Assembly (NCBI RefSeq): GCF_003367075.2
Contig: NZ_CP065936.1
Location: 360,001 to 392,000 of the forward strand
Direction: 5' to 3'
DNA length: 32,000 nt
Origin: Cylindrospermopsis raciborskii Cr2010
GTDB taxonomy: Bacteria > Cyanobacteriota > Cyanobacteriia > Cyanobacteriales > Nostocaceae
In this document: positions 1,007-29,090 of the stretch, piece by piece
How positions within the stretch are numbered: position 1 is the first letter of the stretch
Layout: the number at the start of each line of letters is the position of its first letter
Program-made: the position numbers and the translations under genes
Notes under the pieces: model-generated
Told to the model about the DNA's origin: nothing
The model's database searches: none
What the model saw: the letters and a program-made list of their open reading frames with translations, nothing else

Positions 1007-2353
1007 CTAGGGAAGTTTCATATCCTGTATGAAACTGGTGTAAACCTGACCTTGTAAAAACTGTGGATGTTCCATAATCCTTTGATGAAATCCAATGGTT
1101 GTAGGTAATCCGGTAATTGCACATTCCCTTAGGGCCCGTTTCATACGATTAATAGCTGTATGGCGATCAGGTCCCCAGACGATTAATTTACCAATCAGGG
1201 AATCGTAGTAGGGAGGGATTTGGTAATCTGTGTAAACATGAGAATCAATTCTTACCCCTGGTCCTCCTGGTGGTAAGTAACCACTGATTTTACCAGGTGA
1301 TGGACGAAAGTCATGATCTGGGTCTTCAGCATTGATGCGACATTCGATAGCATGGCCTTGGAGGGTGACCTTATCCTGGTCAAATTTGAGTCTTTCACCT
1401 TGAGCAATACGAATTTGCTCCACCAGAAGATCCACACCGGTGACCATTTCAGTCACTGGGTGTTCTACTTGAATCCGGGTGTTCATTTCCATAAAGTAGA
1501 AATGATCTGACTTATCTAAGAGAAATTCAATGGTTCCAGCACCTGTGTAGTTGATAAACTGTGCTGCTTTTACAGCTGCATGTCCCATTTTTTCACGTAG
1601 ATCTTCATCTAGAGCAGGACTAGGAGCTTCTTCTAATAACTTTTGGTTACGACGCTGAATAGAACAGTCCCTTTCTCCTAAATGGATGACATTACCATAG
1701 TTATCCGCCAGGATTTGAAATTCGATGTGTCGGGGACGTTCGATAAATTTTTCTATATAGACACCAGCATTACCAAAAGCGGCGCCAGCTTCTCCTTGAG
1801 CTGCATGGAACAGCTTAATAAACTCATCTTCACTACGCACAAGACGCATACCCCTTCCACCACCTCCAGCAGTGGCCTTGATCATCACAGGGTAACCTAT
1901 CTGGTGAGCGATCGCCAGTCCTTGGGTTTCAGTTTCCACCAGTCCATCACTACCGGGAACTGTGGGAACTCCAGCCTTTTGCATGGTTTCCTTGGCTGTG
2001 GATTTATCCCCCATTAAGCGAATTGCTTCTGGTGTAGGGCCAATAAATGCAATTTGGTGGTCTGCACAAATCTCCGCGAATCTGGCATTTTCTGCGAGAA
2101 AACCATAACCTGGGTGAATAGCAGTTGCACCCCTGGTTAAGGCTGCTGCAATAATGTTGGGAATATTTAAGTAACTTTTAGCACTAGCTGGTTCACCAAT
2201 ACAAACCGCTTCATCAGCCAATTGAACGTGTAGAGCATTACGGTCAACGGTAGAGTGAATAGCAACTGTGGAAATTCCCATTTCTTCACAGGCCCGGAGA
2301 ATACGAAGGGCTATTTCCCCCCGATTGGCAATTAAAATCTTGTCAAACTTCAT
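1007..2353 (-). CDS. accC: Acetyl-CoA carboxylase biotin carboxylase subunit
   Basis: 448 aa. N-terminus [30 protein letters not shown]-grasp glycine loop [12 protein letters not shown], and [15 protein letters not shown]. Collinear with AccC throughout. Confidence 0.97.
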
Positions 2354-2517
2354 TTTTTAGTTACCATATTACTACCAGTGGATTCACATTTTCTCCCATC
2401 TGCTTGAATTGACGCTGTTATATTATATTAATTCCCATGATTTTTATGATCACGGGGAAGAAGAAAATCCCAGAAAATCTTTGCCAGAACTTGTTTACAA
2501 AACTTTTCAAAAAACAT

Positions 2518-2546
2518 TTGCCATTGTCAATTTACTATGCTATAGT
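2518..2546 (+). promoter_or_regulatory. Candidate sigma70-type promoter for tRNA-Leu
   Basis: TTGCCA (2518-2523), 17-nt spacer, TATAGT (2541-2546). The -10 element ends 18 nt before the mature tRNA 5' end. This is a motif match only. Confidence 0.3.
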
Positions 2547-2564
2547 TTGTTTCTAGGCAATCGT

Positions 2565-2645
2565 GCGGATGTGGCGGAATTGGTATACGCGCACGCTTGA
2601 GGTGCGTGTGGCATTGCCTTGCGAGTTCGAGTCTCGCCATCCGCA
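2565..2645 (+). tRNA. tRNA-Leu (anticodon GAG)
   Basis: Cloverleaf read by eye. Acceptor stem GCGGATG/CATCCGC. Anticodon stem CACGC/GCGTG with loop TTGAGGT (anticodon GAG). Long variable arm (class II). T-arm GCGAG-TTCGAGT-CTCGC. Discriminator A. No CCA is encoded. Confidence 0.9.
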
Positions 2646-2655
2646 TAATGCCCTG

Positions 2656-3285
2656 TTAAAGTTGATTGATTCGAGAAAATAAAAGAGCCACCTTGTCTAG
2701 ATCTTTGTCCCCAGGCGATCGCTCTACTCCACTAGAGAGGTCAATACCATCTGGGTGGATTTGAGTAAGGGCGGTAAGAACATTATCTGGAGTCAATCCT
2801 CCCGCCAAAAACCAGGGAAGGGCGGGGCGGAAGGATTGTAGGACTTGCCAATCCAAAGTTTTGCCTGTTCCTCCCAACTGTTGGGGATGATAAGCATCCA
2901 ATAGAAATGTGTCCACACCACTGGTGTAGTTGAGGGTGGTTTCTAGCTGTTCCCAGCTCCTTACCCTAAAGGCTTTAATTAGTTCTATGTTAGGCAGGAC
3001 TTGACGTAGTTCCTCACAGAACAGTGGTGTTTCGTCCCCATGTAATTGTACACCGGTTAAACTTGATGAACTGACCACTTTGGTAATTTCAAAAATGGTA
3101 CTGTTTGCGAACACACCAATTTTATCAATATGGTCAGGTATATGGGAAGTAGCTAGGTTAATCTGTTCTATACTGACATAGCGGGGTGAACTAGGTACAC
3201 AAATAAAACCTAAAGCAGTTGCACCCAGTTGGGTAATTGCCAAAGATTGTTGTGGTTGAGTGATACCGCAAATTTTAATTCGCAT
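2656..3285 (-). CDS. trpF: Phosphoribosylanthranilate isomerase
   Basis: 209 aa. Begins MRIKICGIT, then [16 protein letters not shown] and DLSSGVE, the typical PRAI TIM-barrel motifs. It starts 12 nt after the hemN stop. Confidence 0.9.
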
Positions 3286-3297
3286 TGAAATAGTAAA

Positions 3298-4680
3298 TTA
3301 TATAGTGCGGGAGAATTTAGACTCCTTCATTTTACTATAAGCGTCAAAGTGACAAGCAATATTTCTCACTAACAATCTACCAATATCCGTGACTTGTATT
3401 TCATCAGCGAATAAATTTACCAGTCCATCCCTTTCTAGACGTCCTAATTCTAGGAGTTCCTCATGGAAATACTGATCAAAATTGATGTGATATTTAGCTT
3501 CAATCTCCAACTTGCGTAGACAGAAATGAGACATAATAGACATAATTACATCCCGTCTGATCATATCATCTGGAGTTAATTGAATTCCCTTACTGATGGG
3601 AACTGCGCCCATTTCCACAGATTGATAGTAATGCTTCAAATCCTTATAGTTTTGAGAATATGCATTATCTAGCATACTGATAGCAGTGATGCCAAAACCA
3701 AACAGTTCAGTTTCTGCATGGGTGGTATAACCTTGGAAGTTTCGTTTTAAAGTACCATTAACCTGAGCGATCGCCAATTCATCATTATGCTTAGCAAAAT
3801 GGTCCATACCAATAAACAGATATTGGTGACTAGTCAACTGCTCAATAGTCATTTTCATGATGTCTAGTTTTTCTTGAGCGGTGGGTAGAGTAGTAGGGTC
3901 AATTTTTTTTTGCACTGGTTTCATCCAGGGGACATAGGCAAAATTAAAGACAACAATTCTGTCTGGGTCAAGAGCAATGGTTTTGGTGAGGGTTTCTTGG
4001 AAACCTTGTAAATTTTGGTAAGGTAAACCATAAATTAAATCCACATTCACACTAGAAAAATTGGCTTGTTTAATCCAGTCCATAGCATCAAACAGCATTT
4101 TTTCTGGTTGAATTCGGTTAACTGCTAGTTGTACTTGGGGGTCAAAGTCTTGGATACCAAAGCTAATGCGATTAAAGCCAATACTTCGCAGAGAGTTAAT
4201 ATAGTCTCTATTGATATAACGGGGGTTAATTTCAATAGAAACTTCCGCATTTGCATCAACAGAGAAATAGCGATTAATAGTTTCCCATAGAAATTCGACT
4301 TGACGTATTTCCAGATAATTGGGAGTACCTCCACCCCAGTGAATTTGAAGAACAGGGCGACTTGTATCAATAAGACGAGAAGTGTTTTTTATTTCCTGAG
4401 CTAAATTATTCACATAAGGTTCAGCAATCTTCTTGTTATGAGAGATGACCGTATTACAACCGCAAAAATAGCAAGGAGTTTGACAGAAAGGAATGTGGAA
4501 ATATAAAGACAGGGGGGTATGACGGTGATTAGAATGAGAAATAGCCATTTCCCAGTCTTGAGTTGTAAATGTTTCAGATAATTCTGTAGCGGGTGGATAA
4601 CTAGTGTATCTAGGAGCGCGAGTGTCATATTTTTGAATCAAGTCCAAATCAAATTTGACACCTGGTAAAACGAAAACCAT
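3298..4680 (-). CDS. hemN: Oxygen-independent coproporphyrinogen III oxidase (radical SAM)
   Basis: 460 aa. Contains YTSYPP, the radical-SAM cluster motif CQTPCYFCGC (CxxxCxxC), and GGGTPNYL. Length and order of motifs match HemN. Confidence 0.9.
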   Translation of the reverse strand: MVFVLPGVKFDLDLIQKYDTRAPRYTSYPPATELSETFTTQDWEMAISHSNHRHTPLSLYFHIPFCQTPCYFCGCNTVISHNKKIAEPYVNNLAQEIKNTSRLIDTSRPVLQIHWGGGTPNYLEIRQVEFLWETINRYFSVDANAEVSIEINPRYINRDYINSLRSIGFNRISFGIQDFDPQVQLAVNRIQPEKMLFDAMDWIKQANFSSVNVDLIYGLPYQNLQGFQETLTKTIALDPDRIVVFNFAYVPWMKPVQKKIDPTTLPTAQEKLDIMKMTIEQLTSHQYLFIGMDHFAKHNDELAIAQVNGTLKRNFQGYTTHAETELFGFGITAISMLDNAYSQNYKDLKHYYQSVEMGAVPISKGIQLTPDDMIRRDVIMSIMSHFCLRKLEIEAKYHINFDQYFHEELLELGRLERDGLVNLFADEIQVTDIGRLLVRNIACHFDAYSKMKESKFSRTI

Positions 4681-4738
4681 AAAAACCTCTGAATTATTCT
4701 TGCGTGGGAGAAGGATTTACGCATAAGTTAAGGGTTGC

Positions 4739-4834
4739 TAATTGGGTGAGTGGAATTAAACATGAACTTAGGTTGGGTTGAGGAACGAAACCCAACGCCA
4801 ACCCATCCTACAAATAATTGTGCCTCCCTACTTA
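4739..4834. mobile_element. MITE-like dispersed element, full-length copy with hairpin core
   Basis: It shares GAGTGGAATTAAA...AGGTTGGGTTGA..GAAACCCAAC...CAAATAATTGTGCCTCCCTACTTA with 27951-29090 and 30232-30308. The ends are imperfect inverted repeats (TAA(T/G)TGGGTGAGTGGAATTA versus the reverse complement TAAGTAGGGAGGCACAATTA). The 8-bp stem is GTTGGGTT/AACCCAAC. The element ends 2 nt from the heme oxygenase stop codon. Confidence 0.55.
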
Positions 4835-4836
4835 GA

Positions 4837-5592
4837 TCAAACTAGCTGATTATAGTTAGCTTGACCCAACTTGGTCATTAATATAGGTTCCAACTCTTTC
4901 ACTATCTCCATATTGAGATAGAAAGCATAATTAGCTTCAGCGACAATTTGATCAGCAGTTGTCTCATCCACCGGTACAAGATCTAATGCTTGGCGATACT
5001 GGTTTTTAAAAACCTGTTTATCGGGAATTTGCTCGAAATTATAAAACTCAGTTCCCTCATAACCAGAGAGTTGTAAAGCTGACTGAGCAATTTTCTGCAA
5101 CATTTGTCCACCGGAAAGATCACCCATATAACGGGTATAGGCATGACCTAATAGTAGAGCAGGTTGATGGGTAGAAAGTTGTTGCAGACGAGCAACATAT
5201 TTTTGAGTAGCTAAGGATGGTTTTAGGTAACTAGGCCAGAGATCACCATAATAAAATAACATATCTTTTTCTAAGGATGGAAGACGATTTAGTTGGGGAA
5301 AATACATTACCTTAATTACAGGATGTTGTTGATGTTTAGCAATTGCAGCTTCTAGTTCACCGTAGACAAAATACAGATTGCCCAAAAATTTTCCCAAACA
5401 TTCTTTGTCTACAATCCCCTTGACGAAACACTTCATAAAACCCACGTTTTCTGCATCCGTATGAGCTTTTTGAGTACCGGAGCGAAGTTTTACCGCTAAG
5501 TTATTGCCCATTAGTTTTTCCCTCCAATTTTTGTGCACTAAGAGAGATGAATGGTCTTGCTTGGTTGGAAGCACATCTTTAATAGTCATCAT
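4837..5592 (-). CDS. Heme oxygenase (HO2-like by context)
   Basis: 251 aa. LAVKLRSGTQKAHTDAENVGFMKCFVKGIVDKE...LGNLYFVYGELE is the heme oxygenase proximal-helix region (His in QKAH). Its position immediately upstream of hemN on the same strand resembles the micro-oxic ho2-hemN arrangement of Synechocystis. Confidence 0.9.
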   Translation of the reverse strand: MMTIKDVLPTKQDHSSLLVHKNWREKLMGNNLAVKLRSGTQKAHTDAENVGFMKCFVKGIVDKECLGKFLGNLYFVYGELEAAIAKHQQHPVIKVMYFPQLNRLPSLEKDMLFYYGDLWPSYLKPSLATQKYVARLQQLSTHQPALLLGHAYTRYMGDLSGGQMLQKIAQSALQLSGYEGTEFYNFEQIPDKQVFKNQYRQALDLVPVDETTADQIVAEANYAFYLNMEIVKELEPILMTKLGQANYNQLV

Positions 5593-7709: not shown

Positions 7710-8498
7710 ATGGGATTATTTGATAGGTTAAAAAGAGTAGTTAGTGCCAATCTGAATGATTTAGTCAATAAAGCGGAAGATCCAGAAAAAATGCTGGAAC
7801 AGGCCGTCTTGGAAATGCAGGAAGACCTGGTGGAACTTCGTCAAGGGGTGGCACAAGCTATTGCTGCCCAAAAACGCACGGAAAAGCAATATAATGATGC
7901 TGTTAGTGAAGTGAATAAGTGGCAGCGCAATGCCCAGTTGGCTGTACAAAAAGGAGATGAGAACCTGGCACGTCAGGCTTTAGAAAGGAAGAAAAGTGCT
8001 AATGAAACCTCTATAGCTCTCAAAACTAGTTTAGACCAGCAGACTAATCAGGTAGACACTCTTAAAAAAAACCTGATCCAATTGGAAAGCAAAATTGCTG
8101 AGTACAAAAACAAAAAGGACATGCTCAGGGCGCGGATTACTGCCGCTAAAGCTCAAGAACAGATTGGCTCGATGGTTACTAATATGAATAGTAATAGTGC
8201 TATGGCTGCTTTTGAGCGAATGGAAGAGAAAGTTCTCATGCAAGAGGCTCGTGCCCAGTCTACAGCAGAATTAGTGGGTGCGGATTTAGATAGTCAATTT
8301 GCTCGTCTGGAAGGTAGTAGTGATATTGATGATGAATTGGCAGCTTTGAAAGCCAGTATACTATCACCAGCTCCTACACCTAAAGGAGAATTACCTCCTG
8401 CTGAATCTAGCAGTAGTTCCCAAAAGGATCAAAGCAAATCCGCTGAACCCGTAGATGCTGAATTGGAAGAGCTGAGAAAACAACTGGATAAATTATAA
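7710..8498 (+). CDS. vipp1: Vesicle-inducing protein in plastids 1 / IM30 (PspA family)
   Basis: 262 aa. It begins MGLFDRLKRVVSANLNDLVNKAEDPEKMLEQAVLEMQEDL (PspA/IM30 helix 1). A Pro/Ser-rich linker and an extra C-terminal helix (VDAELEELRKQLDKL) distinguish Vipp1 from PspA. Confidence 0.9.
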   Translation: MGLFDRLKRVVSANLNDLVNKAEDPEKMLEQAVLEMQEDLVELRQGVAQAIAAQKRTEKQYNDAVSEVNKWQRNAQLAVQKGDENLARQALERKKSANETSIALKTSLDQQTNQVDTLKKNLIQLESKIAEYKNKKDMLRARITAAKAQEQIGSMVTNMNSNSAMAAFERMEEKVLMQEARAQSTAELVGADLDSQFARLEGSSDIDDELAALKASILSPAPTPKGELPPAESSSSSQKDQSKSAEPVDAELEELRKQLDKL

Positions 8499-15803: not shown

Positions 15804-15821
15804 TCCGTCCTTATGGACGGA
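15804..15821. terminator. 7-bp stem hairpin between convergent genes (possible bidirectional terminator)
   Basis: TCCGTCC-TTAT-GGACGGA. The stop codon of the minus-strand gene (15811-15813) lies in the loop. T-rich sequence follows on both strands (TTCTCTTGTT on plus, TTCTTTTGG on minus). Confidence 0.35.
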
Positions 15822-16407
15822 TTCTCTTGTTCGCTGAAACTACAGAGTTTGCCATTTTTACTAAATCGCTTAAACTGCCCGCTTTTAATCCAATAGTGTA
15901 CTGCACTCCTTTTTCTCTCCATGTCAGGTTAGCATCGGAGCAGTTAGCACCACATTTAAAATCTTCAAAATAAGCTTTTTTGTTATTGTTTAGGTTTACT
16001 TCTTTTCCTACAGGTTTGGGGGTATTACTACTAACTAGCTCTGCACTAATAGCACCAAAACGACAAGCTGTTCCCCCACTACAATCGGGAGTGAATCCTA
16101 GTAGGATTTGGTATTTGTTTTTGGTTACCGTTTCCACAATTGAGTAAAGTGGGGGCTCATTTTTCCCAATGGGAATATGGGTTGGTAATAGAATATTGAT
16201 TTGGGTGGTTTTCTTTAATTTAGATAGAATTGGTTGAAAAACCGGATTAACCTGGGATTTTTTGCCCTGAATTGGCTGTTTTGCTATTATCTGGTGCTGG
16301 TAGATTCCTAGTGCTGGGGTGACTGTGATAAGGTTAGTACCGGTGAGCAGTACAAACACGGTACATAATGGACTAATATGCTTGATTGGAAATTTGGAAT
16401 TCATCAT
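15811..16407 (-). CDS. Secreted hypothetical protein (signal peptide, four Cys)
   Basis: 198 aa. The N-terminal hydrophobic segment is ISPLCTVFVLLTGTNLITVTPALG. The mature part has CSGGTAC and CGANC pairs. It starts 61 nt downstream of the Hsp70-like gene on the same strand. Confidence 0.6.
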   Translation of the reverse strand: MMNSKFPIKHISPLCTVFVLLTGTNLITVTPALGIYQHQIIAKQPIQGKKSQVNPVFQPILSKLKKTTQINILLPTHIPIGKNEPPLYSIVETVTKNKYQILLGFTPDCSGGTACRFGAISAELVSSNTPKPVGKEVNLNNNKKAYFEDFKCGANCSDANLTWREKGVQYTIGLKAGSLSDLVKMANSVVSANKRIRP

Positions 16408-16468: not shown

Positions 16469-19462
16469 TTAATGCACACCACAAAATGGGTCTCGTTCCC
16501 TATCGATTTCATTGGGTTGTAATTCCAATTCACTATAGTAAACACATCCTGGTTGTTGTAAAGATTCCAGACTATGGGATATCCAATAGGGAACTGCTCC
16601 TGGGTGCATTCTTAATATTCCCTTACTATCTAGGGTGACATAGTATTGACAAGGGTAATCCGTAGAGATTTCTGGTTTGCTAAGGGATCCAATACGGATC
16701 CATTTTTTAGTTTTGGTCAAACTATCGGTTTGACAGATATAGAAATTATGTTGACCATTTTGGGGAAATGGTGGTAAAGGACTACTAATTAATCCCTTTC
16801 CAGTTTCTTTGCTTCCATCTTGTAAGTAATGAAACGTTTCTAATATCTGATTTTGACTGTTGTCAACTGCAAAGACTAAATGATAGGCATCCGGTTGATC
16901 CACTGTAGCAGATTCTAGGACATTGATAGCAATATCACCATCTTTTAAATTGTCATAATCGCCTATAAGGGCAATATTCCATTTTAATTTTCCATCAACA
17001 AATATATCAGAACCAGTTGAATGGGAGTCAATGACAGAATTGATATCAATTCCTGGCACATCTATTAAATAATGGGGACTACCTTGACAGAGTAAAACAG
17101 TAAATTGGAGAGTTTGGTCAATTTCAAATTGGACTTGAATTTTTTTGAGAAATTCAGCTTCTTCCATCCTCAAATTTTCCATGAGAGTTTTACCATCAAA
17201 ACTACCCCAAAGACGTAATTCCCCATCTTGGTAATCTTGACGATAGATGATATTAGTTAATTGAATACCTTGCCAAGTTGTTCTTACTTTAGCGACACTT
17301 TCCCAAGGGATAAGTTGATAGAGTTCTTGTCCAGCATTAAAAATAGATAATAATTCCTGAGTTTGGGTTTTGCGCTTGAAGTTGCAGGGTAAATAATAAA
17401 ATAGATTTTTCACATCTATTTCCAGCTGATTTGCTCCCTTGCGCAGTAAACTTTTAGAAGCTTCCGGATCAAATCTTAACCTTCTTAATTTTTCCGCGTA
17501 ACAAGCACCAGCAGAAGTTGCTAATTTAGTAAATTCTAGGACAAAAGTAATCCGTTCGGGATTCCAGATAAAGTAGGGAGATTTGCTAAATTCTTGGTAA
17601 ATTTGGGTTTTCACCAAATCCAGATTACAAGTTTTACCTGAGAGAATTAACCAATCTACCTTTTCATCTCCATTTAAACGACTTTCCATCAGTCCTTTGG
17701 CGATTCCTATGGCTTCTCTAATACTAGAAATAGCACAACGTTGAAATTGTTGGGCGTTTATAGTTAGGTAAATAGAATCAGCACCAACCAGTTGAAATTT
17801 CACACCACTTTGTAAAAGCAACTCGCTAATTTCTTGCTCATTGAGGGTAAAGGTTAATAAACTATCTTCAGCTCCTTTCTCCCCTAATTTTAATTTGGCG
17901 GATTCTGCATATTCCCACAGAGTATAGAAGGTTTGGAGACGTTGAGGAGCTTGTTGCCATCGAGTTGGTAAGACTTTTTCAGCGGTGTCTAAAGCGTCTT
18001 TGAAAGCAACATCCCCTTCTGGATTCTCTTTGTCCACACATTTTAATAAACTGCCACTTTTAAATTTGCTCTCTTGTAAAAAGCGCTCGTTGAGTTCTGA
18101 ATTAATTAAGTCCTCTAGCTTATCACTGGTTATATCGCCATCGGTAACCGCTGTTAATAAAAAATCAGCCAGGGCAATTTTTAACAATCGAAAAACTCGT
18201 AAGGTGATTAATTCCCCACCTAATTGTAAATGTCCTGAAGAACCCAATAATTTTGGTGTCAGTTTATAATAACGTCCTCCCAAACCTCTATCCTCACTAT
18301 TGGCAAAAACAGGAGTTTTATCTTCTAGGGTGAGTTTGATTAATGCTAGGTCGGTCGTACCCCCACCAATGTCCAATACCAGAACATTTTGGGACCAGTT
18401 ATTTTTTTCCTGACGACAACGGGTTTTAAATGATTCAATACCAATATTCAAATTACCACCAAATTCTCGCCATAAAAAGAATATGGCTACGGAAACAGCT
18501 TCGTCATAGGCCGTTTGCACATCATCTAACCCTAATTCCTCTACTAGTGCTTTAATCTCCTTTCGCACCACCGGAGGAGCAACTGTGGGATAGGTGACCA
18601 CCGCTGTCAAAAAGTCCCCTTGAGAAAATCTTCTACCTGCACGTTGACGATAGTCTTCAGTTAATTCAATTAGGTGTCCCCACGCTGCTTGAATTAATTG
18701 GTGAACTTCAATGTTATTATTTTCTAGATCATTTTTTTCTCCCTCATTTATCACCACAGGAAAAGTCCGATTTTGCCCAAAATATCTTTTTGGTGAATGA
18801 TGAAATCTACTAATAATATCTTTAAGTGAATTAATTGTACCCTGGGCGATCGCCTTTTTGCGGTTATCTCTTGCAGCTCTACCCATTTGCAATTTCAATG
18901 GTTGTATTTTACAGATTTCTATTTCACTAGGAATTTCTGTTTGTCTTCTATTAAAATCCAAAACCACTGGAATCAAATTTTGCGACTCTAGGGTAGGAAC
19001 GCGAAAAACCTCATGATATATTTGATAGAGTTTTTTACTGACAGCGCGACGAAATCTTTCACTGTTTCCCAAACATAGTTCAATTTGACGAAGAGCTTCT
19101 AGAAATTTGTCTTTATGGTCGTTTTCAAAAATTTCCCCTATTGTTTCTGGTGGAATTTCCAAATTCCTACCCAGATTGACCAGGAATTTTTCCCATTCGT
19201 TCCCACCAATATCTGGTAGAGCTAAATGGGGAGGTGAGTTTAACCATTCCCCTAACCGCTGACGCAGTCTTACTTCTTGTTCTCTGGGTAGGGTTTCTGC
19301 AATTGGTACTTCAATAGGGTCAAACATCGTTACTGTAGAGTTAGAAGTGCCAAAATCTACTGCCAACCAGCCTGGAAATCTCTTGTTAGAGTCTTCATTT
19401 AGTTTTTCACTTAGTTTCTGACTTAATCGGTTAAGGTAAGTGTCTAGTTCAAAATTGTTCAT
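16469..19462 (-). CDS. Atypical giant Hsp70/actin-fold (ASKHA) ATPase, 997 aa
   Basis: Hsp70 nucleotide-binding motifs appear in canonical order. Phosphate-1 is AVDFGTSNS (nt 19337-19357). Next come SPKRYFG, then AVVTYPTVAPPVVRKEIKALVEELGL, then YDEAVSVAIFF. Phosphate-2 is VLVLDIGGGTTDLALI (nt 18350-18373), followed by HLQLGGELIT. The adenosine motif is WLILSGKTCNLDLVK, followed by ATSAGACYAE. The ~340 C-terminal residues are unassigned. Confidence 0.85.
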   Translation of the reverse strand: MNNFELDTYLNRLSQKLSEKLNEDSNKRFPGWLAVDFGTSNSTVTMFDPIEVPIAETLPREQEVRLRQRLGEWLNSPPHLALPDIGGNEWEKFLVNLGRNLEIPPETIGEIFENDHKDKFLEALRQIELCLGNSERFRRAVSKKLYQIYHEVFRVPTLESQNLIPVVLDFNRRQTEIPSEIEICKIQPLKLQMGRAARDNRKKAIAQGTINSLKDIISRFHHSPKRYFGQNRTFPVVINEGEKNDLENNNIEVHQLIQAAWGHLIELTEDYRQRAGRRFSQGDFLTAVVTYPTVAPPVVRKEIKALVEELGLDDVQTAYDEAVSVAIFFLWREFGGNLNIGIESFKTRCRQEKNNWSQNVLVLDIGGGTTDLALIKLTLEDKTPVFANSEDRGLGGRYYKLTPKLLGSSGHLQLGGELITLRVFRLLKIALADFLLTAVTDGDITSDKLEDLINSELNERFLQESKFKSGSLLKCVDKENPEGDVAFKDALDTAEKVLPTRWQQAPQRLQTFYTLWEYAESAKLKLGEKGAEDSLLTFTLNEQEISELLLQSGVKFQLVGADSIYLTINAQQFQRCAISSIREAIGIAKGLMESRLNGDEKVDWLILSGKTCNLDLVKTQIYQEFSKSPYFIWNPERITFVLEFTKLATSAGACYAEKLRRLRFDPEASKSLLRKGANQLEIDVKNLFYYLPCNFKRKTQTQELLSIFNAGQELYQLIPWESVAKVRTTWQGIQLTNIIYRQDYQDGELRLWGSFDGKTLMENLRMEEAEFLKKIQVQFEIDQTLQFTVLLCQGSPHYLIDVPGIDINSVIDSHSTGSDIFVDGKLKWNIALIGDYDNLKDGDIAINVLESATVDQPDAYHLVFAVDNSQNQILETFHYLQDGSKETGKGLISSPLPPFPQNGQHNFYICQTDSLTKTKKWIRIGSLSKPEISTDYPCQYYVTLDSKGILRMHPGAVPYWISHSLESLQQPGCVYYSELELQPNEIDRERDPFCGVH

Positions 19463-19508
19463 AGTTTATTTGTTATTGGTTTTTATTGTCACTACAGGTA
19501 AAACTACT

Positions 19509-22070
19509 TTAAGTGTACTCATAGATATGTTGCTGGTCAATAGATGCAATATCACTAAGAATTTCCAACCAGGTAGGTATGGTCAATTCTAAGGTTGTGT
19601 CTCCAGCAGCAATATATCTAAGTAGTTCTTCTTTTTTCAATAAGTTTTGCAAACTGGGGATGATTTGATCTAAGATTCCCTCCAATTCTAAATTTATCTG
19701 TCGGTTTACTTCGCTCACATATTGAATCAAATGTAAACTAGCACTAGTAATAATTTCATCTCTTAATCGTAAAATAAAAACTTGGTGATTTGTACTGCTA
19801 GACAAATATTGACTTCTTTCCACAGACCAATCAAATACTTGTCCTGTATCATGCTTCTCATCCTGTTTGGCTAGGGGAAATATATTTTCCGGTATTATGG
19901 GTTTATCTTGATTCTCTATTTCCTCAATAATTGCCTCCTTCCATTGATTTGGTTTTGATGCTAACAACAGTCTATAGAATAGGTCTGCTGCTTCTGCTCC
20001 AAACTTATCTTCCATCAATTCTTCCAGTTCGGGATTGAGCGCTAATTTTTCTGACTCCAAATTGATGGTATTAGTTAATTTGACCAATAAATCTATTACA
20101 GATTGCCTAATACAATCTCTAGCAAATTTTTCCATATCTTTAATAGTTTGGGCAAAAACGGGATAGAAATCATCACTTTTCGTGGGCAATGTATTATTAA
20201 CCTTGGTTCCACGATCTGCACGATCAAATAATTTCCCCGCCGCACCTTTAGATTCTACCAAGGCAATTCTACCACCTTGCAATTTATTAAAAAATAAAGT
20301 CCACTGATTCCAGCTGAGAATTTGATAAGTTAATTCATCTTTGATAAGACTACTAACTACTAAACCACGTCTATCTTTTAGAGGTTCCTTACCCAAATCC
20401 CTACGAAAATTACGGTAGACTTTATCCAAACTCTCAATAGCCAATCGCAAATCAACTAGGGCTTGACTATCAGCAGCAGGTACGCCCTGGGCCTGAATTT
20501 CAGCCACAATATCTTTCAATTGTTCCTGTTGTTGACGAATAAGATCCGCCCCTCTGCGAGTATCTTCATATAACTGTTTTAACCCATGGGTATTCACATG
20601 ATTTTGAATCAATTCCCTTAACTTGCTCACACCTCCATCCCGAGCAAAATAATCCAATTGTCTACCCAAAATACTGCGGGAATCCTGGCTTAATAATTTC
20701 TGGCTTAACCTCCCCCATTTTTCTTGTAATTTTTTTGGTCGTTCCAGATAATCGGGATAATCTATATTTGCCAAAAATTCATCTGAACCAGCTTTCACCT
20801 TAGTTGAACGTTTGGATAATTCCGCTAACCCCAACAATGGCGATAATAGAACAATTCTGTCATCTTCACTGGTAAAAGCTCTCCCACTATCAATAATAGT
20901 TTCCAAAATTTTTAAATTTTCTAAAACTACTTCAGTTTCTAAAGCTTTATCATGGTATTCTTCAGCAATTAGACTGTCTAAAATCCTTTCCCCCCCTTCA
21001 TTCTCTAAAGGTAATTGATCGAAACGTCCTACCCCTACCAAAATTAAATCCTTTAAATCTTGACCTGGACGCTGTTGCTGCATCATCGTAAATATCTTAT
21101 TGGCGCGATCGCTCCCTGGGGATTTGCCATTTAATAGCACCAAAATAGTTTGTACCTGAGCTAATTCTCGTAAAGAAAGAAAAGTATCTCTAGCACCGGA
21201 ATTGGCTGCACCCAACCCAGGAAAATCCAACAGAACAAATTCTTCTGCTCCGGTCAAATCCCAAATTTCCCTAGATATTTTCACCTGAATATCCACTCTC
21301 CGAATCAAGGGAAAACTATTTTGTAATAATTGGGATGGCAAAATTTGTGGCGCTTTGGGCAATCTAATATGAGCTGGAGGTAAATCCTCAAATCGTAACG
21401 TTTGAATTGCCATAGGCAATTCAACTAACTGTAGACCATTTTTGGCAGTTTTGGCATCAATAGTATAGGTTTTATCACATAGAGATTCACCATAAGCTTG
21501 ATAAGAACGTAAAAATAATACTAACTCTCGTAATAAATAGCGCAGTTCCAAATTATTAGAGCTTTGCCAAGCTTCTTCACACCAGGAAGAAATATCCTTA
21601 CCAGTTTTAATTTTACCAACCTGTAAAGGTGGTAACCCAGCAGCAACCGCACGGCGATTGGCTTCCGATAACATAAAATGTAAACATTCGTTCACACCCT
21701 CATGAGATAAATACTCAACACTATAACTAGTTACTTGAGTAGTACTAAAATTCTCCTGTAGTTGAATATGAATAGCAGTGACATTTCCCGTCGTAGGATT
21801 TTCACTAACTGGTAGAGCATCCGCATAACCAATTAAACTACCCAACAACAAACTTTTGCCACTGCTAAACTCGCCCATGACACCAATTTTCACAGGAGAG
21901 TTAGCCATTTCCACTGTTTTTTCAGCAGCACCTCGTAACTGCAGTAAACATTCATCTAAACGGGAGGGAATCCAATCTTCCTGCTCAGACAGATGGAGAG
22001 GTACAGAGTCAATTTTACGAAGGATAAATTCAGCGTAGTCTTGAAACCTGGTTAATTTGTCTAGTTCCAT
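19509..22070 (-). CDS. Dynamin-like GTPase (bacterial DLP family), 853 aa
   Basis: G1 is IGVMGEFSSGKSLLLGSLIG (GEFSSGKS at nt 21852-21875), G2 is NPTTG, G3 is LLDFPGLG and G4 is VGVGRFD. A long predicted helical stalk follows (LRELIQNHV...QQQEQLKDIVAEIQ...). No TM segment is evident by eye. Confidence 0.85.
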   Translation of the reverse strand: MELDKLTRFQDYAEFILRKIDSVPLHLSEQEDWIPSRLDECLLQLRGAAEKTVEMANSPVKIGVMGEFSSGKSLLLGSLIGYADALPVSENPTTGNVTAIHIQLQENFSTTQVTSYSVEYLSHEGVNECLHFMLSEANRRAVAAGLPPLQVGKIKTGKDISSWCEEAWQSSNNLELRYLLRELVLFLRSYQAYGESLCDKTYTIDAKTAKNGLQLVELPMAIQTLRFEDLPPAHIRLPKAPQILPSQLLQNSFPLIRRVDIQVKISREIWDLTGAEEFVLLDFPGLGAANSGARDTFLSLRELAQVQTILVLLNGKSPGSDRANKIFTMMQQQRPGQDLKDLILVGVGRFDQLPLENEGGERILDSLIAEEYHDKALETEVVLENLKILETIIDSGRAFTSEDDRIVLLSPLLGLAELSKRSTKVKAGSDEFLANIDYPDYLERPKKLQEKWGRLSQKLLSQDSRSILGRQLDYFARDGGVSKLRELIQNHVNTHGLKQLYEDTRRGADLIRQQQEQLKDIVAEIQAQGVPAADSQALVDLRLAIESLDKVYRNFRRDLGKEPLKDRRGLVVSSLIKDELTYQILSWNQWTLFFNKLQGGRIALVESKGAAGKLFDRADRGTKVNNTLPTKSDDFYPVFAQTIKDMEKFARDCIRQSVIDLLVKLTNTINLESEKLALNPELEELMEDKFGAEAADLFYRLLLASKPNQWKEAIIEEIENQDKPIIPENIFPLAKQDEKHDTGQVFDWSVERSQYLSSSTNHQVFILRLRDEIITSASLHLIQYVSEVNRQINLELEGILDQIIPSLQNLLKKEELLRYIAAGDTTLELTIPTWLEILSDIASIDQQHIYEYT

Positions 22071-22167: not shown

Positions 22168-22608
22168 TTAAGGTTGAGGGTTTGGCGAGTTCTTGAACCG
22201 AGAAAGATGAACCCTATAGACATATTTTCCTTTGGATAGATTTCCCACATATACCTTGTACTCTCCAGGAGACCAAAATCCAGTCATTTCTGGTTGATTT
22301 CCGTCTGGTAACATACAGAAACGTCCACCCGGACCATCAACTAGTAATGTGGCTTTTTCTTCCCCTTCTAGTGTCAGTCTCAGATAGGGTATGGGTTCTT
22401 TGACCACAATAATTTGATTGGGTTGGCTAGGAATAAGGCCACAGTCCCTTTTAACTCTTGCTAGGGAATTACCACTAATAACTAGTGGATCCGGAGAAAG
22501 TTCCTGTTTAATCTCGATAACTCCCTGTTGTGCTATCACACCCTGGTTCCATGGCAAACCTATGAGGAGGTTAACTGTAAGAAAGGTTAGTAATTTTAGT
22601 GTTTTCAT
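22168..22608 (-). CDS. Secreted hypothetical protein (signal peptide)
   Basis: The ATG at 22608 gives MKTLKLLTFLTVNLLIGLPWNQGVIAQQ, a typical signal peptide, and is preferred over the ATG at 22671. The mature ~120 aa looks beta-rich and contains two Cys. It ends 97 nt upstream of the dynamin-like gene on the same strand. Confidence 0.6.
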   Translation of the reverse strand: MKTLKLLTFLTVNLLIGLPWNQGVIAQQGVIEIKQELSPDPLVISGNSLARVKRDCGLIPSQPNQIIVVKEPIPYLRLTLEGEEKATLLVDGPGGRFCMLPDGNQPEMTGFWSPGEYKVYVGNLSKGKYVYRVHLSRFKNSPNPQP

Positions 22609-22842
22609 TTTCACCTGTGCATCCGTAAACACTTGGATAGAAATTTTGATTAATTTGACCAAACTACTCAAGTTTTGTTCCCGGTTTTACCGTTTTAGGT
22701 ACATTATTAATTGAACTATCCTGATATAACACGGGACAAATGGAAAATCCTGACTATGGAGTGAGATTTTGTTGACCTTCTCCCCTATTCAATTGTAGAT
22801 TTATATGTACATGTAAATTTACAGGGGCGATGATAAAACATC

Positions 22843-27950: not shown

Positions 27951-29090
27951 TAAGTAGGCGAGTGGAATTAAATATAAGATGAACGTAGGTTGGGTTGAAG
28001 CATGAAACCCAACACCCCCATGGGTCTCGTTCCCCCCCACAAATAATTGCGCCCCCCCATACTACCCTTGATAGTTGTAATGAACGTAGGTTGGGTTGAA
28101 GCATGAAACCCAACACCCCCATGGGTCTCGTTCCCCCCCACAAATAATTGCGCCCCCCCATACTACCCTTGATAGTTGTAATGAACGTAGGTTGGGTTGA
28201 AGCATGAAACCCAACACCCCCATGGGTCTCGTTCCCCCCCACAAATAATTGCGCCCCCATACTACCCTTGATAGTTGTAATGAACGTAGGTTGGGTTGAA
28301 GCATGAAACCCAACACCCCCATGGGTCTCGTTCCCCCCCACAAATAATTGCGCCTCCCCATACTACCCTTGATAGTTGTAATGAACGTAGGTTGGGTTGA
28401 AGCATGAAACCCAACACCCCCATGGGTCTCGTTCCCCCACAAATAATTGCGCCCCCATACTACCCTTGATAGTTGTAATGAACGTAGGTTGGGTTGAAGC
28501 ATGAAACCCAACACCCCATGGGTCTCGTTCCCCCCCACAAATAATTGCGCCTCCCCATACTACCCTTGATAGTTGTAATGAACGTAGGTTGGGTTGAAGC
28601 ATGAAACCCAACACCCCCATGGGTCTCGTTCCCCCCCACAAATAATTGCGCCCCCCCATACTACCCTTGATAGTTGTAATGAACGTAGGTTGGGTTGAAG
28701 CATGAAACCCAACACCCCCATGGGTCTCGTTCCCCCCCACAAATAATTGCGCCTCCCCATACTACCCTTGATAGTTGTAATGAACGTAGGTTGGGTTGAA
28801 GCATGAAACCCAACACCCCCATGGGTCTCGTTCCCCCCCACAAATAATTGCGCCTCCCCATACTACCCTTGATAGTTGTAATGAACGTAGGTTGGGTTGA
28901 AGCATGAAACCCAACACCCCCATGGGTCTCGTTCCCCCCCACAAATAATTGCGCCCCCCCATACTACCCTTGATAGTTGTAATGAACGTAGGTTGGGTTG
29001 AAGCATGAAACCCAACACCCCCATGGGTCTCGTTCCCCCCTACAAATAATTGCGCCTCCCCATACTACCTTTGGTAGTTGTAATGTTATA
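27951..29090. repeat. Tandem array: 11 head-to-tail copies of a 97-101 bp unit derived from the MITE-like element
   Basis: The unit landmark GAACGTAGG recurs at 27981, 28082, 28183, 28282, 28383, 28480, 28580, 28681, 28782, 28883 and 28984. The unit is GAACGTAGGTTGGGTTGAAGCATGAAACCCAACA-C(4-5)-ATGGGTCTCGTT-C(5-7)-ACAAATAATTGCG-(C5/C7/CCTCCCC)-ATACTACCCTTGATAGTTGTAAT. There are no unique spacers. Confidence 0.95.

Follow-up and report, generated by a model that had tools for sequence, protein, structure and literature searches.

A dynamin-like GTPase gene paired with an SrfB-like Hsp70-fold ATPase gene in Cylindrospermopsis raciborskii Cr2010 and the conserved module to which it belongs

Cyanobacterial dynamin-like proteins (DLPs) have been sorted by sequence and gene context by Jilly, Khan, Aronsson and Schneider (2018, Front Plant Sci 9:206; PMC5827413), and the DLPs that have a gene for a DnaK-domain protein downstream form what is called there the 'chaperone clade'. 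The list of this clade covers 11 heterocystous strains in which the downstream gene is annotated either as 'molecular chaperone' or as 'Virulence factor SrfB'; thus, Nos7524_3124 is followed by 'Virulence factor SrfB' and Cylst_0498 by 'molecular chaperone', and NSP_34240 is also among the members (PMC5827413). The idea of a membrane-linked chaperone was raised for this pairing in the same paper. Here we describe an operon-like gene pair of this kind, coding for a DLP of 853 aa and an SrfB-like Hsp70-fold ATPase of 997 aa, in a 32,000-nucleotide stretch of Cylindrospermopsis raciborskii Cr2010 (contig NZ_CP065936.1, positions 360,001 to 392,000), the whole of which is called the window below and in which position 1 is the first nucleotide. 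The original prediction, which was made from the letters of the window, took the pair to be a candidate for an undescribed system. This part of it does not stand because the pair fits the chaperone clade in gene context and in annotation (PMC5827413). As to whether the pair matches a system that is both named and characterised, the name exists (PMC5827413) but the characterisation does not: we found no experimental work on any member of the family in the literature, and the later papers of the field that were found do not follow up the chaperone clade pairing. The module is therefore real, conserved and known as a published gene-context class, and the window holds its reduced two-gene form. 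What is new here is the adjacency of the two genes in actinomycetes, a third gene, the loss of an N-terminal domain, variable accessory genes and a TIR fusion.

The gene pair and its predicted products

Both genes are on the minus strand and, when read in that direction, the DLP gene is upstream and the ATPase gene is downstream. The genes, which were located by open reading frame (ORF) and translation, and their junction, which was analysed by a terminator scan and RNA folding, are as follows.

19509..22070, minus strand: DLP gene, 853 aa, first of the pair
19463..19508, minus strand: intergenic junction between the DLP gene and the ATPase gene, 46 nt, without a terminator or a stable hairpin
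16469..19462, minus strand: SrfB-like Hsp70-fold ATPase gene, 997 aa, second of the pair

Two very large co-directional ORFs of 853 and 997 aa with 46 nt between them had been predicted and they are at the coordinates claimed for them. The absence of a terminator-like hairpin from the junction, which had also been predicted, was borne out: the terminator scan of the 46-nt gap gave no terminator-like site, and the junction RNA is weakly folded with a minimum free energy of -5.8 kcal/mol (z = +1.15 compared to shuffled sequences). Promoter-like matches in the gap are weak and their frequency is not above that in shuffled sequence. Every motif quoted in the original prediction was located in the two translations, and when the folds were checked by Pfam and other hidden Markov model (HMM) searches, by PDB profile searches and by structural models, the dynamin-like and the Hsp70-fold assignments both held.

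The DLP matches Pfam Dynamin_N with E = 1.1e-8 and 35.7 bits (cut-off 27 bits) over residues 62-118 only. When a DLP family profile built from cyanobacterial and actinomycete relatives was searched against PDB, the best match was the Campylobacter DLP pair 5OWV (E = 2.2e-4), with which the G1-G2 and G3 segments were aligned, and the 653 homologues of the DLP carry the annotation 'dynamin family protein'. The nucleotide-binding motifs of the DLP are listed here with their state in an alignment of diverse DLPs.

21852..21875, minus strand: G1/P-loop GEFSSGKS, residues 66-73, nearly invariant except in Micromonospora and Actinoplanes
21786..21797, minus strand: G2 PTTG, residues 92-95, P92, T93 and T94 nearly invariant and G95 invariant
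21216..21227, minus strand: G3 DFPG, residues 282-285, D282 and P284 invariant
21018..21029, minus strand: G4-like GRFD, residues 348-351, non-canonical, with [GN]-x-[FL]-D in place of [NT]KxD

G2 and G3 are separated by an insertion of about 180 residues. A long helical stalk had been predicted for the DLP, but an AlphaFold2 (AF2) model built from a shallow alignment of close homologues had a mean confidence (pLDDT, predicted local distance difference test) of 37, too low to support it. A hydrophobic or transmembrane-like segment was sought in the sequences of both the DLP and the ATPase and none was found. Taken together, the G1-G3 motifs, the Dynamin_N score and the PDB profile indicate that the 853-aa protein is a dynamin-superfamily GTPase with an atypical G4.

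The 997-aa protein matches Pfam HSP70 at 1.3e-3 and Pfam SrfB (PF07520) at 9.3e-6, and the latter match has 24.4 bits, which is under the cut-off of 27.1, and spans about 74 of the 992 profile positions around the phosphate-2 motif. SrfB was matched at E < 1e-3 by 15 of 30 diverse relatives of the ATPase, the best at 2.5e-12. In PDB, the family profile of the ATPase matched only nucleotide-binding domains (NBDs) of Hsp70 proteins, with DnaK the best at 1.3e-11. The AF2 model of this protein, which was made from a 45-sequence alignment, is confident (pLDDT 86.8 and predicted template modelling score, pTM, 0.85), and in a Foldseek search it came closest to DnaK, BiP and Ssb in their full length, with E = 8e-18 over about 650 columns at 14% identity. 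The regions and motifs of the ATPase are as follows.

17438..19375, minus strand: Hsp70-type NBD with large helical insertions, residues ~30-675, predicted from model secondary structure and Foldseek
19337..19357, minus strand: phosphate-1 motif DFGTSNS, residues 36-42, from motif search and alignment
18350..18373, minus strand: phosphate-2 motif DIGGGTTD, residues 364-371, from motif search and alignment
17621..17650, minus strand: adenosine motif LILSGKTCNL, residues 605-614, from motif search, with G609 invariant
16472..17425, minus strand: C-terminal region rich in beta structure, residues ~680-997, which takes the place of the substrate-binding domain and lid of DnaK, predicted from model and alignments

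The catalytic set D36, G38, D320, E321, D364, G366, G368, D371 and G609 is invariant over 30-45 diverse relatives. In the C-terminal ~320 residues the model has beta-rich domains, and the protein ends in a tail, RDPFxGxH, that is conserved in the family; here G948, G972 and V974 are invariant in one alignment, G972 and P992 in another, and G995 is nearly invariant. A canonical DnaK substrate-binding domain was not found, as the Pfam, NCBIfam and PDB-profile matches of the ATPase are confined to the NBD, and the DnaK and HscA models of NCBIfam all scored far under their cut-offs. The prediction that this protein is without a DnaK substrate-binding domain or an EEVD tail is thus upheld, and so is the statement that no DnaJ or GrpE gene is nearby: none of the genes with a Pfam annotation in L001, a near-identical contig that extends about 10 kb to each side, codes for either protein. 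By its modelled NBD fold and the full set of motifs the 997-aa protein is best described as an Hsp70-fold ATPase.

Both genes carry a copy of the HIP1 palindrome, which was located by motif search.

18846..18853, plus strand: HIP1 palindrome (GCGATCGC) in the Hsp70-like gene
21105..21112, plus strand: HIP1 palindrome (GCGATCGC) in the DLP gene

In the whole window there are 13 copies of this palindrome and 0.04 are expected, an abundance that is a sign of a cyanobacterial chromosome. The ratio of nonsynonymous to synonymous substitution rates (dN/dS) was 0.11 for the DLP gene and 0.08 for the ATPase gene when compared with L001, which is 99% similar, and the same two values, 0.11 and 0.08, were obtained when compared with Sphaerospermopsis. 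Both genes in the window are under strong purifying selection. No match was found when the DLP and the ATPase were searched by tblastn against plasmids and the ATPase against phages. The long residence of the pair in its host, which had been deduced from the HIP1 sites, is corroborated by the presence of HIP1 in both genes, by dN/dS of about 0.1 and by the absence of copies from the plasmids and phages searched.

Conserved adjacency, additional genes and the surroundings of the pair

Conserved adjacency of homologues of the two genes had been set beforehand as the key test of the module, and we compared 15 loci that have a full-length member of the ATPase family. The Planctomycetota contig L017 has too little sequence ahead of the ATPase gene to be informative as to an upstream DLP. 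In 13 of the 14 informative loci, in two phyla, the DLP gene is directly upstream of the ATPase gene and on the same strand (L001-L005, L007, L008, L015, L016 and L018-L021), and these 13 loci cover Nostocales and five actinomycete genera. The module thus passes the test: homologues of the two genes are co-localised in other genomes. The lone exception is Scytonema sp. HK-05 (L006:49-7494), where the pair is split by an insertion of about 6 kb. The order in this locus is a 451-aa DLP fragment, then a STAND gene with NB-ARC and TPR on the opposite strand (2071-5397), and then the Hsp70-like gene. In actinomycetes the stop of the DLP gene and the start of the ATPase gene overlap or abut (6999/7001, 7001/7001, 8004/8001 and 7997/8001), an arrangement that points to translational coupling and to a stoichiometric complex.

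The genes that flank the pair differ completely from genus to genus. The identities of the DLP and the ATPase to the proteins of the window were, respectively, 71-72% and 74-75% in Nostoc, 48% and 52% in Fischerella, 23% and 30% in Actinomadura, 24% and 25% in Streptomyces, and 21% and 27% in Micromonospora; the values show a parallel divergence of the DLP and the ATPase. In the representative library, the ATPase family makes up 412 clusters when grouped at 50% identity. Close homologues of the ATPase (74-84% identity) were found in many Nostocales genera, DLP homologues that are 72-79% identical are also from Nostocales genera, and a homologue is present in Trichormus (Anabaena) variabilis ATCC 29413. 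The pattern in Nostocales is that of a chromosomal, vertically inherited module. Remote homologues of the ATPase (23-31%) are common in actinomycetes, namely Micromonospora, Actinoplanes, Actinomadura, Streptomyces, Kitasatospora, Kineosporia and Parafrankia, and one remote homologue is from a Planctomycetota metagenome-assembled genome (MAG).

In 13 of the 15 loci a third conserved gene of about 345-510 aa follows the ATPase gene (for example, L002:11122-12228, L019:9588-10676, L016:10552-11760 and L017:4006-5121). Its hosts are Nostoc, Anabaena cylindrica, Fischerella, Scytonema, Rhizonema, five actinomycetes and the Planctomycetota MAG, a spread over three phyla. A profile of the third gene had no match in Pfam or PDB. 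This gene could not be detected in the window, in L001 or in the Sphaerospermopsis locus L018. The term 'two-gene module' in the original prediction has to be corrected accordingly: the common form has three genes and the window has a reduced variant. A second difference lies in the ATPase itself. Many of its relatives, including those in A. cylindrica, Sphaerospermopsis and Fischerella, carry an N-terminal domain of about 136 aa, or else an extension of 250-290 aa (for example, P0005 residues 1-139, L019:6001-6420 and L005:7446-7880). The ATPase of the window begins exactly past the position of this domain, and no remnant of the domain was detectable in the window, where 19463-19508 was compared, or in the Nostoc loci. 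The pair in the window is a reduced, minimal form and not a decaying one, and it is functional without the third gene because dN/dS is 0.11 and 0.08 for the two genes. Natural reduced variants such as this one show that the smallest unit which selection retains is the DLP together with the ATPase. The two-gene picture in the literature is incomplete since a third gene and accessory modules exist.

The accessory genes were seen in three actinomycete loci, in which the triad is extended by variable, translationally coupled genes. Beyond the triad there are vWA and Tubulin_2/FtsZl1 genes in Actinoplanes (L020:12199-16786), an APH-like kinase fold, vWA and PP2C in Kineosporia (L021:12414-15702), and a PP2C-like protein and an Hsp70-WD40 protein in Streptomyces (L015:12043-17233). 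A relative of the ATPase, P0256, which has 1549 aa and is 46% identical to the ATPase of the window, carries an N-terminal TIR domain (TIR_2, 4e-21), and this TIR part matches the PADLOC models PDC-S66 and SAVED_TIR. The DLPs of Micromonospora and Actinoplanes (L008:5737-7947 and L020:5989-8004) have a degenerate P-loop (e.g. LLAEGDDDHVV), and from their sequences these are probably GTPase-dead copies that are kept inside the operon. The window locus has none of the vWA, tubulin-like, PP2C, kinase-like, WD40 and TIR features.

The neighbours of the pair in the window are ordinary or housekeeping genes, and among their products are CbiJ, PNPOx, an RDD/pentapeptide protein, a protein with a PRC barrel and a CIA30/NAD-binding one. 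The other features of the window are as follows.

22168-22671, minus strand: ORF of 167 aa upstream of the pair, no Pfam match
15811-16407, minus strand: ORF of 198 aa downstream of the pair, no Pfam match, with a hydrophobic, signal-peptide-like start
7710-8498, plus strand: PspA/IM30 (Vipp1) homologue, about 8 kb from the module and beside a thioredoxin gene
27979-29085: tandem array of a 101-bp unit repeated 11 times with 97% matches
2564-2646, plus strand: tRNA-Leu (GAG), the sole RNA gene detected in the window

Membership in the module was considered for the two ORFs of 167 and 198 aa, which flank the pair on its own strand, and was rejected, as they are conserved in L001 only. Linkage of the Vipp1/IM30 gene to the module was not kept in L018 or L019 and is therefore probably coincidental. 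The tandem array has a permease gene on one side and a response-regulator/histidine-kinase gene on the other; it is GC-rich (0.51 compared to a background of about 0.39), its unit holds the hairpin-like GTTGGGTTGAAGCATGAAACCCAAC, and the unit had no match in Rfam. In L001, a single unit is present at the matching site and one more is at L001:399, and as the site has a single unit in a contig that is 99% similar, the array has expanded recently. In a scan of contigs by generic Hsp70 motifs, 7 of 13 loci among the matches listed were true members of the ATPase family. L009-L014 were rejected as family loci, as they hold unrelated Hsp70s (e.g. HSP70 and DUF3731 pairs) and not SrfB. In Caballeronia and Noviherbaspirillum (L010:5466-10109 and L012:5548-10343) there are tandem non-canonical Hsp70s of about 620 and 950 aa, and this proteobacterial pair, whose second Hsp70 has a DUF3731 'DnaK-related' C-terminus, is unrelated to the DLP-ATPase module.

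Possible role and competing explanations

A reading for which we consider the chances to be about even is that the pair forms a two-NTPase machine, in which the DLP is a GTP-driven scaffold and the ATPase is an ATP-driven Hsp70-like clamp, with a maintenance role in Nostocales. The DLP would bind GTP and self-assemble as a scaffold, probably at the surface of a membrane because transmembrane segments are lacking in both proteins. Through its own beta-rich C-terminal domains and tail the ATPase would engage either the DLP or a client that the DLP holds, and its ATP cycles would load, remodel or dismantle the DLP assembly. The GTPase would then set the place and the timing, the ATPase would reset the system, and the third protein, where it is present, could be an adaptor or a co-factor. 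An analogy for such an ATP-driven reset of a DLP assembly is the Hsc70-mediated uncoating in eukaryotic endocytosis. To our knowledge, the known partners of bacterial DLPs are other DLPs, and the functions of bacterial DLPs are obscure. If the two-NTPase reading is true, a DLP that is obligatorily coupled to an Hsp70-fold ATPase would represent a different working principle, namely, GTP-driven assembly followed by ATP-driven reset. What the analysis shows is two intact NTPases with conserved folds and motifs, obligatory genomic coupling, co-divergence, purifying selection and a chromosomal setting; that the two proteins interact physically, that they associate with a membrane, which of them regulates the other and what the cell uses them for are inferred. 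The broad distribution, vertical inheritance and strong constraint of the module in Nostocales fit a maintenance role, for example in membrane or septum dynamics of filamentous cells, better than a mobile defence island. Heterocystous cyanobacteria and actinomycetes are the classic multicellular lineages of bacteria, and the presence of the module in most heterocystous cyanobacteria and in many actinomycetes suggests that its function may bear on the maintenance of filament membranes or septa or on immunity.

Several observations weigh against a two-NTPase maintenance machine. In the DLP, the Dynamin_N match is restricted to the part from the P-loop to G2 and the G4 departs from the canonical form; the model, with its pLDDT of 37, does not resolve a stalk or a paddle; and there is no hydrophobic or transmembrane segment by which a membrane-binding element could be recognised. 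The degenerate P-loops of the Micromonospora and Actinoplanes DLPs imply that GTP hydrolysis is not universally required. The loss of the third gene and of the N-terminal domain in the lineage of the window shows that the module is evolutionarily plastic. Finally, vWA, tubulin-like, PP2C, kinase-like and Hsp70-WD40 genes and a TIR fusion would be expected in systems for conflict or signalling more than in a housekeeping machine of the membrane.

The last of these points leads to the explanation that survives best among the alternatives, which sees in the module the invariable core of a conflict system of multicellular bacteria, either anti-phage or for programmed cell death, by analogy with the DO-GTPase/GAP1 systems of Kaur et al. 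(PMC7159879). Of the roles named in the original prediction, the anti-phage one has indirect support, and for the thylakoid one nothing speaks apart from the name of the family. From the comparison of loci one could picture the DLP as the GTP switch or sensor, the ATPase as an ATP-dependent assembling or threshold component, the third protein as an adaptor and the variable neighbours or fusions as effectors, and the copy in the window would then be stripped-down or partly decayed; we regard this as possible but rather unlikely. It would account for the variable accessory genes by which the constant triad is followed in Streptomyces, Actinoplanes and Kineosporia, for the TIR fusion in P0256, for the inactive P-loop in some DLP copies and for the NB-ARC/TPR STAND gene that is inserted into the Scytonema HK-05 pair. 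The bias of the family to filamentous Cyanobacteria and Actinomycetes, together with a Planctomycetota MAG, is like that of the systems described by Kaur et al. (PMC7159879), there is a weak similarity to LeoA in the P-loop region of the DLP, and B. subtilis DynA is reported to contribute to phage defence (PMC12998192). However, no PADLOC model was matched past the level of the P-loop or other motifs, and no DO-GTPase, GAP1 or EAD family of Pfam was matched above threshold. The Nostocales pair is widespread, is about 75% identical across genera and has housekeeping and not defence neighbours; its dN/dS of about 0.1 carries no arms-race signature; the pair was not found on plasmids or phages; and the copy in the window is without an effector-like partner.

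A broader proposal, which we put forward tentatively and consider doubtful, is that of an unrecognised three-component NTPase system that consists of a DLP, an SrfB-like Hsp70 ATPase and a conserved adaptor of about 400 aa, with the pair in the window as its reduced form. Such a system would occur in filamentous Cyanobacteria, Actinomycetes and some Planctomycetota, and its constant core would recruit variable modules of the vWA, FtsZ-like tubulin, PP2C, kinase-like, WD40 or TIR type. In function it would represent either a new class of regulated conflict or cell-fate systems among multicellular bacteria or the prokaryotic equivalent of the Hsp70-driven disassembly of dynamin or coat polymers.

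It is very improbable that the 997-aa protein is an orthologue of SrfB and that the pair is a cyanobacterial form of the SrfABC toxin/virulence complex, which has been reported as a tripartite toxin (PMC6950479). What suggests it is that many homologues of the ATPase are annotated 'virulence factor SrfB', that half (15/30) of the diverse members match Pfam SrfB, and that vWA genes flank srfABC in Haemophilus and Xenorhabdus (bioRxiv 10.64898/2026.09.18.752743), which is reminiscent of the actinomycete contexts. The ATPase of the window, however, reaches 24.4 bits against a cut-off of 27.1 over about 74 of 992 positions, the DLP has no match to the Pfam SrfC family at E up to 10, and no SrfA-like gene (kinase-like, transmembrane, lipocalin) adjoins any locus that was examined. 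Moreover, the hosts of the module are free-living phototrophs and soil actinomycetes. We found no information on the fold of SrfB or SrfC in the literature.

That an ordinary DLP and a divergent DnaK-type folding chaperone are unrelated neighbours, adjacent by chance or local synteny, is hardly credible: proximity alone within the window and the weak promoter-like matches in the 46-nt gap speak for it, but the two genes have stayed adjacent in Cyanobacteria and in Actinobacteria, where identity to the proteins of the window is down to about 21-31% and the flanks are wholly different, stop and start overlap in actinomycetes, both proteins diverge in parallel, and the ATPase is without the substrate-binding domain of DnaK and without a gene for a J-protein or GrpE nearby.

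Comparison with known systems

DO-GTPase/GAP1 systems combine GTPases with tubulin and HSP70 and are biased to filamentous bacteria (Kaur, Burroughs, Iyer and Aravind 2020; PMC7159879). The module resembles them in joining a GTPase to an Hsp70-family protein and in the bias of its family to filamentous bacteria. It differs from them in that G3 of the DLP carries Asp and not the Walker-B Glu, and in that there are no GAP1, FNIII or GrpE components; the Pfam models of DO-GTPase/GAP1 had no match to the DLP, ATPase or third-gene proteins. The vWA and Tubulin_2 genes of the Actinoplanes locus, which are absent from the window locus, belong to the FtsZl1-vWA-GTPase operons that were described by Makarova and Koonin (2010; PMC2875224). 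With LeoABC/Eleos the pair shares a dynamin-like GTPase, and a weak match to the LeoA HMM was seen at the P-loop of the DLP (9e-5, residues 50-102), but the pair is without the second and third GTPases of the LeoB/C type and has an Hsp70-fold ATPase as the partner. When PADLOC was run on the pair it gave matches at the level of motifs only, at about 1e-4 or weaker, and no real system match.

Like SrfB (PF07520), the ATPase of the window is a giant protein of about 1000 aa with Hsp70 motifs, and databases apply the SrfB name; unlike SrfB, it is under the Pfam cut-off with one motif region matched, and the gene order and hosts differ from those of SrfABC. With Hsp70/DnaK it has in common the NBD fold, as modelled, and all the catalytic motifs. 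The differences from DnaK are an identity of about 14%, the large helical insertions in the NBD, about 320 residues of beta-rich domains with an RDPFxGxH tail in place of the substrate-binding domain, lid and EEVD, and the lack of a J-protein or GrpE gene within about 10 kb. The DLP of the window is similar to Nostoc punctiforme BDLP and to Campylobacter jejuni DLP1/DLP2 (5OWV) in its large size and in the dynamin type of its GTPase P-loop, G2 and G3, and it is also like DLP1/DLP2 in that it is paired in an operon with a probable working partner. In contrast to the characterised DLPs, this partner is an Hsp70-fold ATPase and not a second DLP, and the similarity of the DLP to them is limited to the G1-G3 segments, with an insertion of about 180 residues between G2 and G3 and a non-canonical G4.

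The closest likeness is to the chaperone clade. The DLP gene of the window has the gene for an Hsp70-fold protein directly downstream on the same strand after a 46-nt gap, and the homologues of the window genes share the taxa of the clade (Nostocales genera) and the annotations of its downstream genes. The P-loop extension GKSLLLGSLIG of the window DLP departs from the GxxxxGKS/TxL/INALL/I of most cyanobacterial bacterial dynamin-like proteins (PMC5827413). A third gene, accessory genes and the TIR fusion do not appear in the account given there, which is a note on gene context with cyanobacterial members only, and the analysis of the window adds actinomycete and Planctomycetota members to it.

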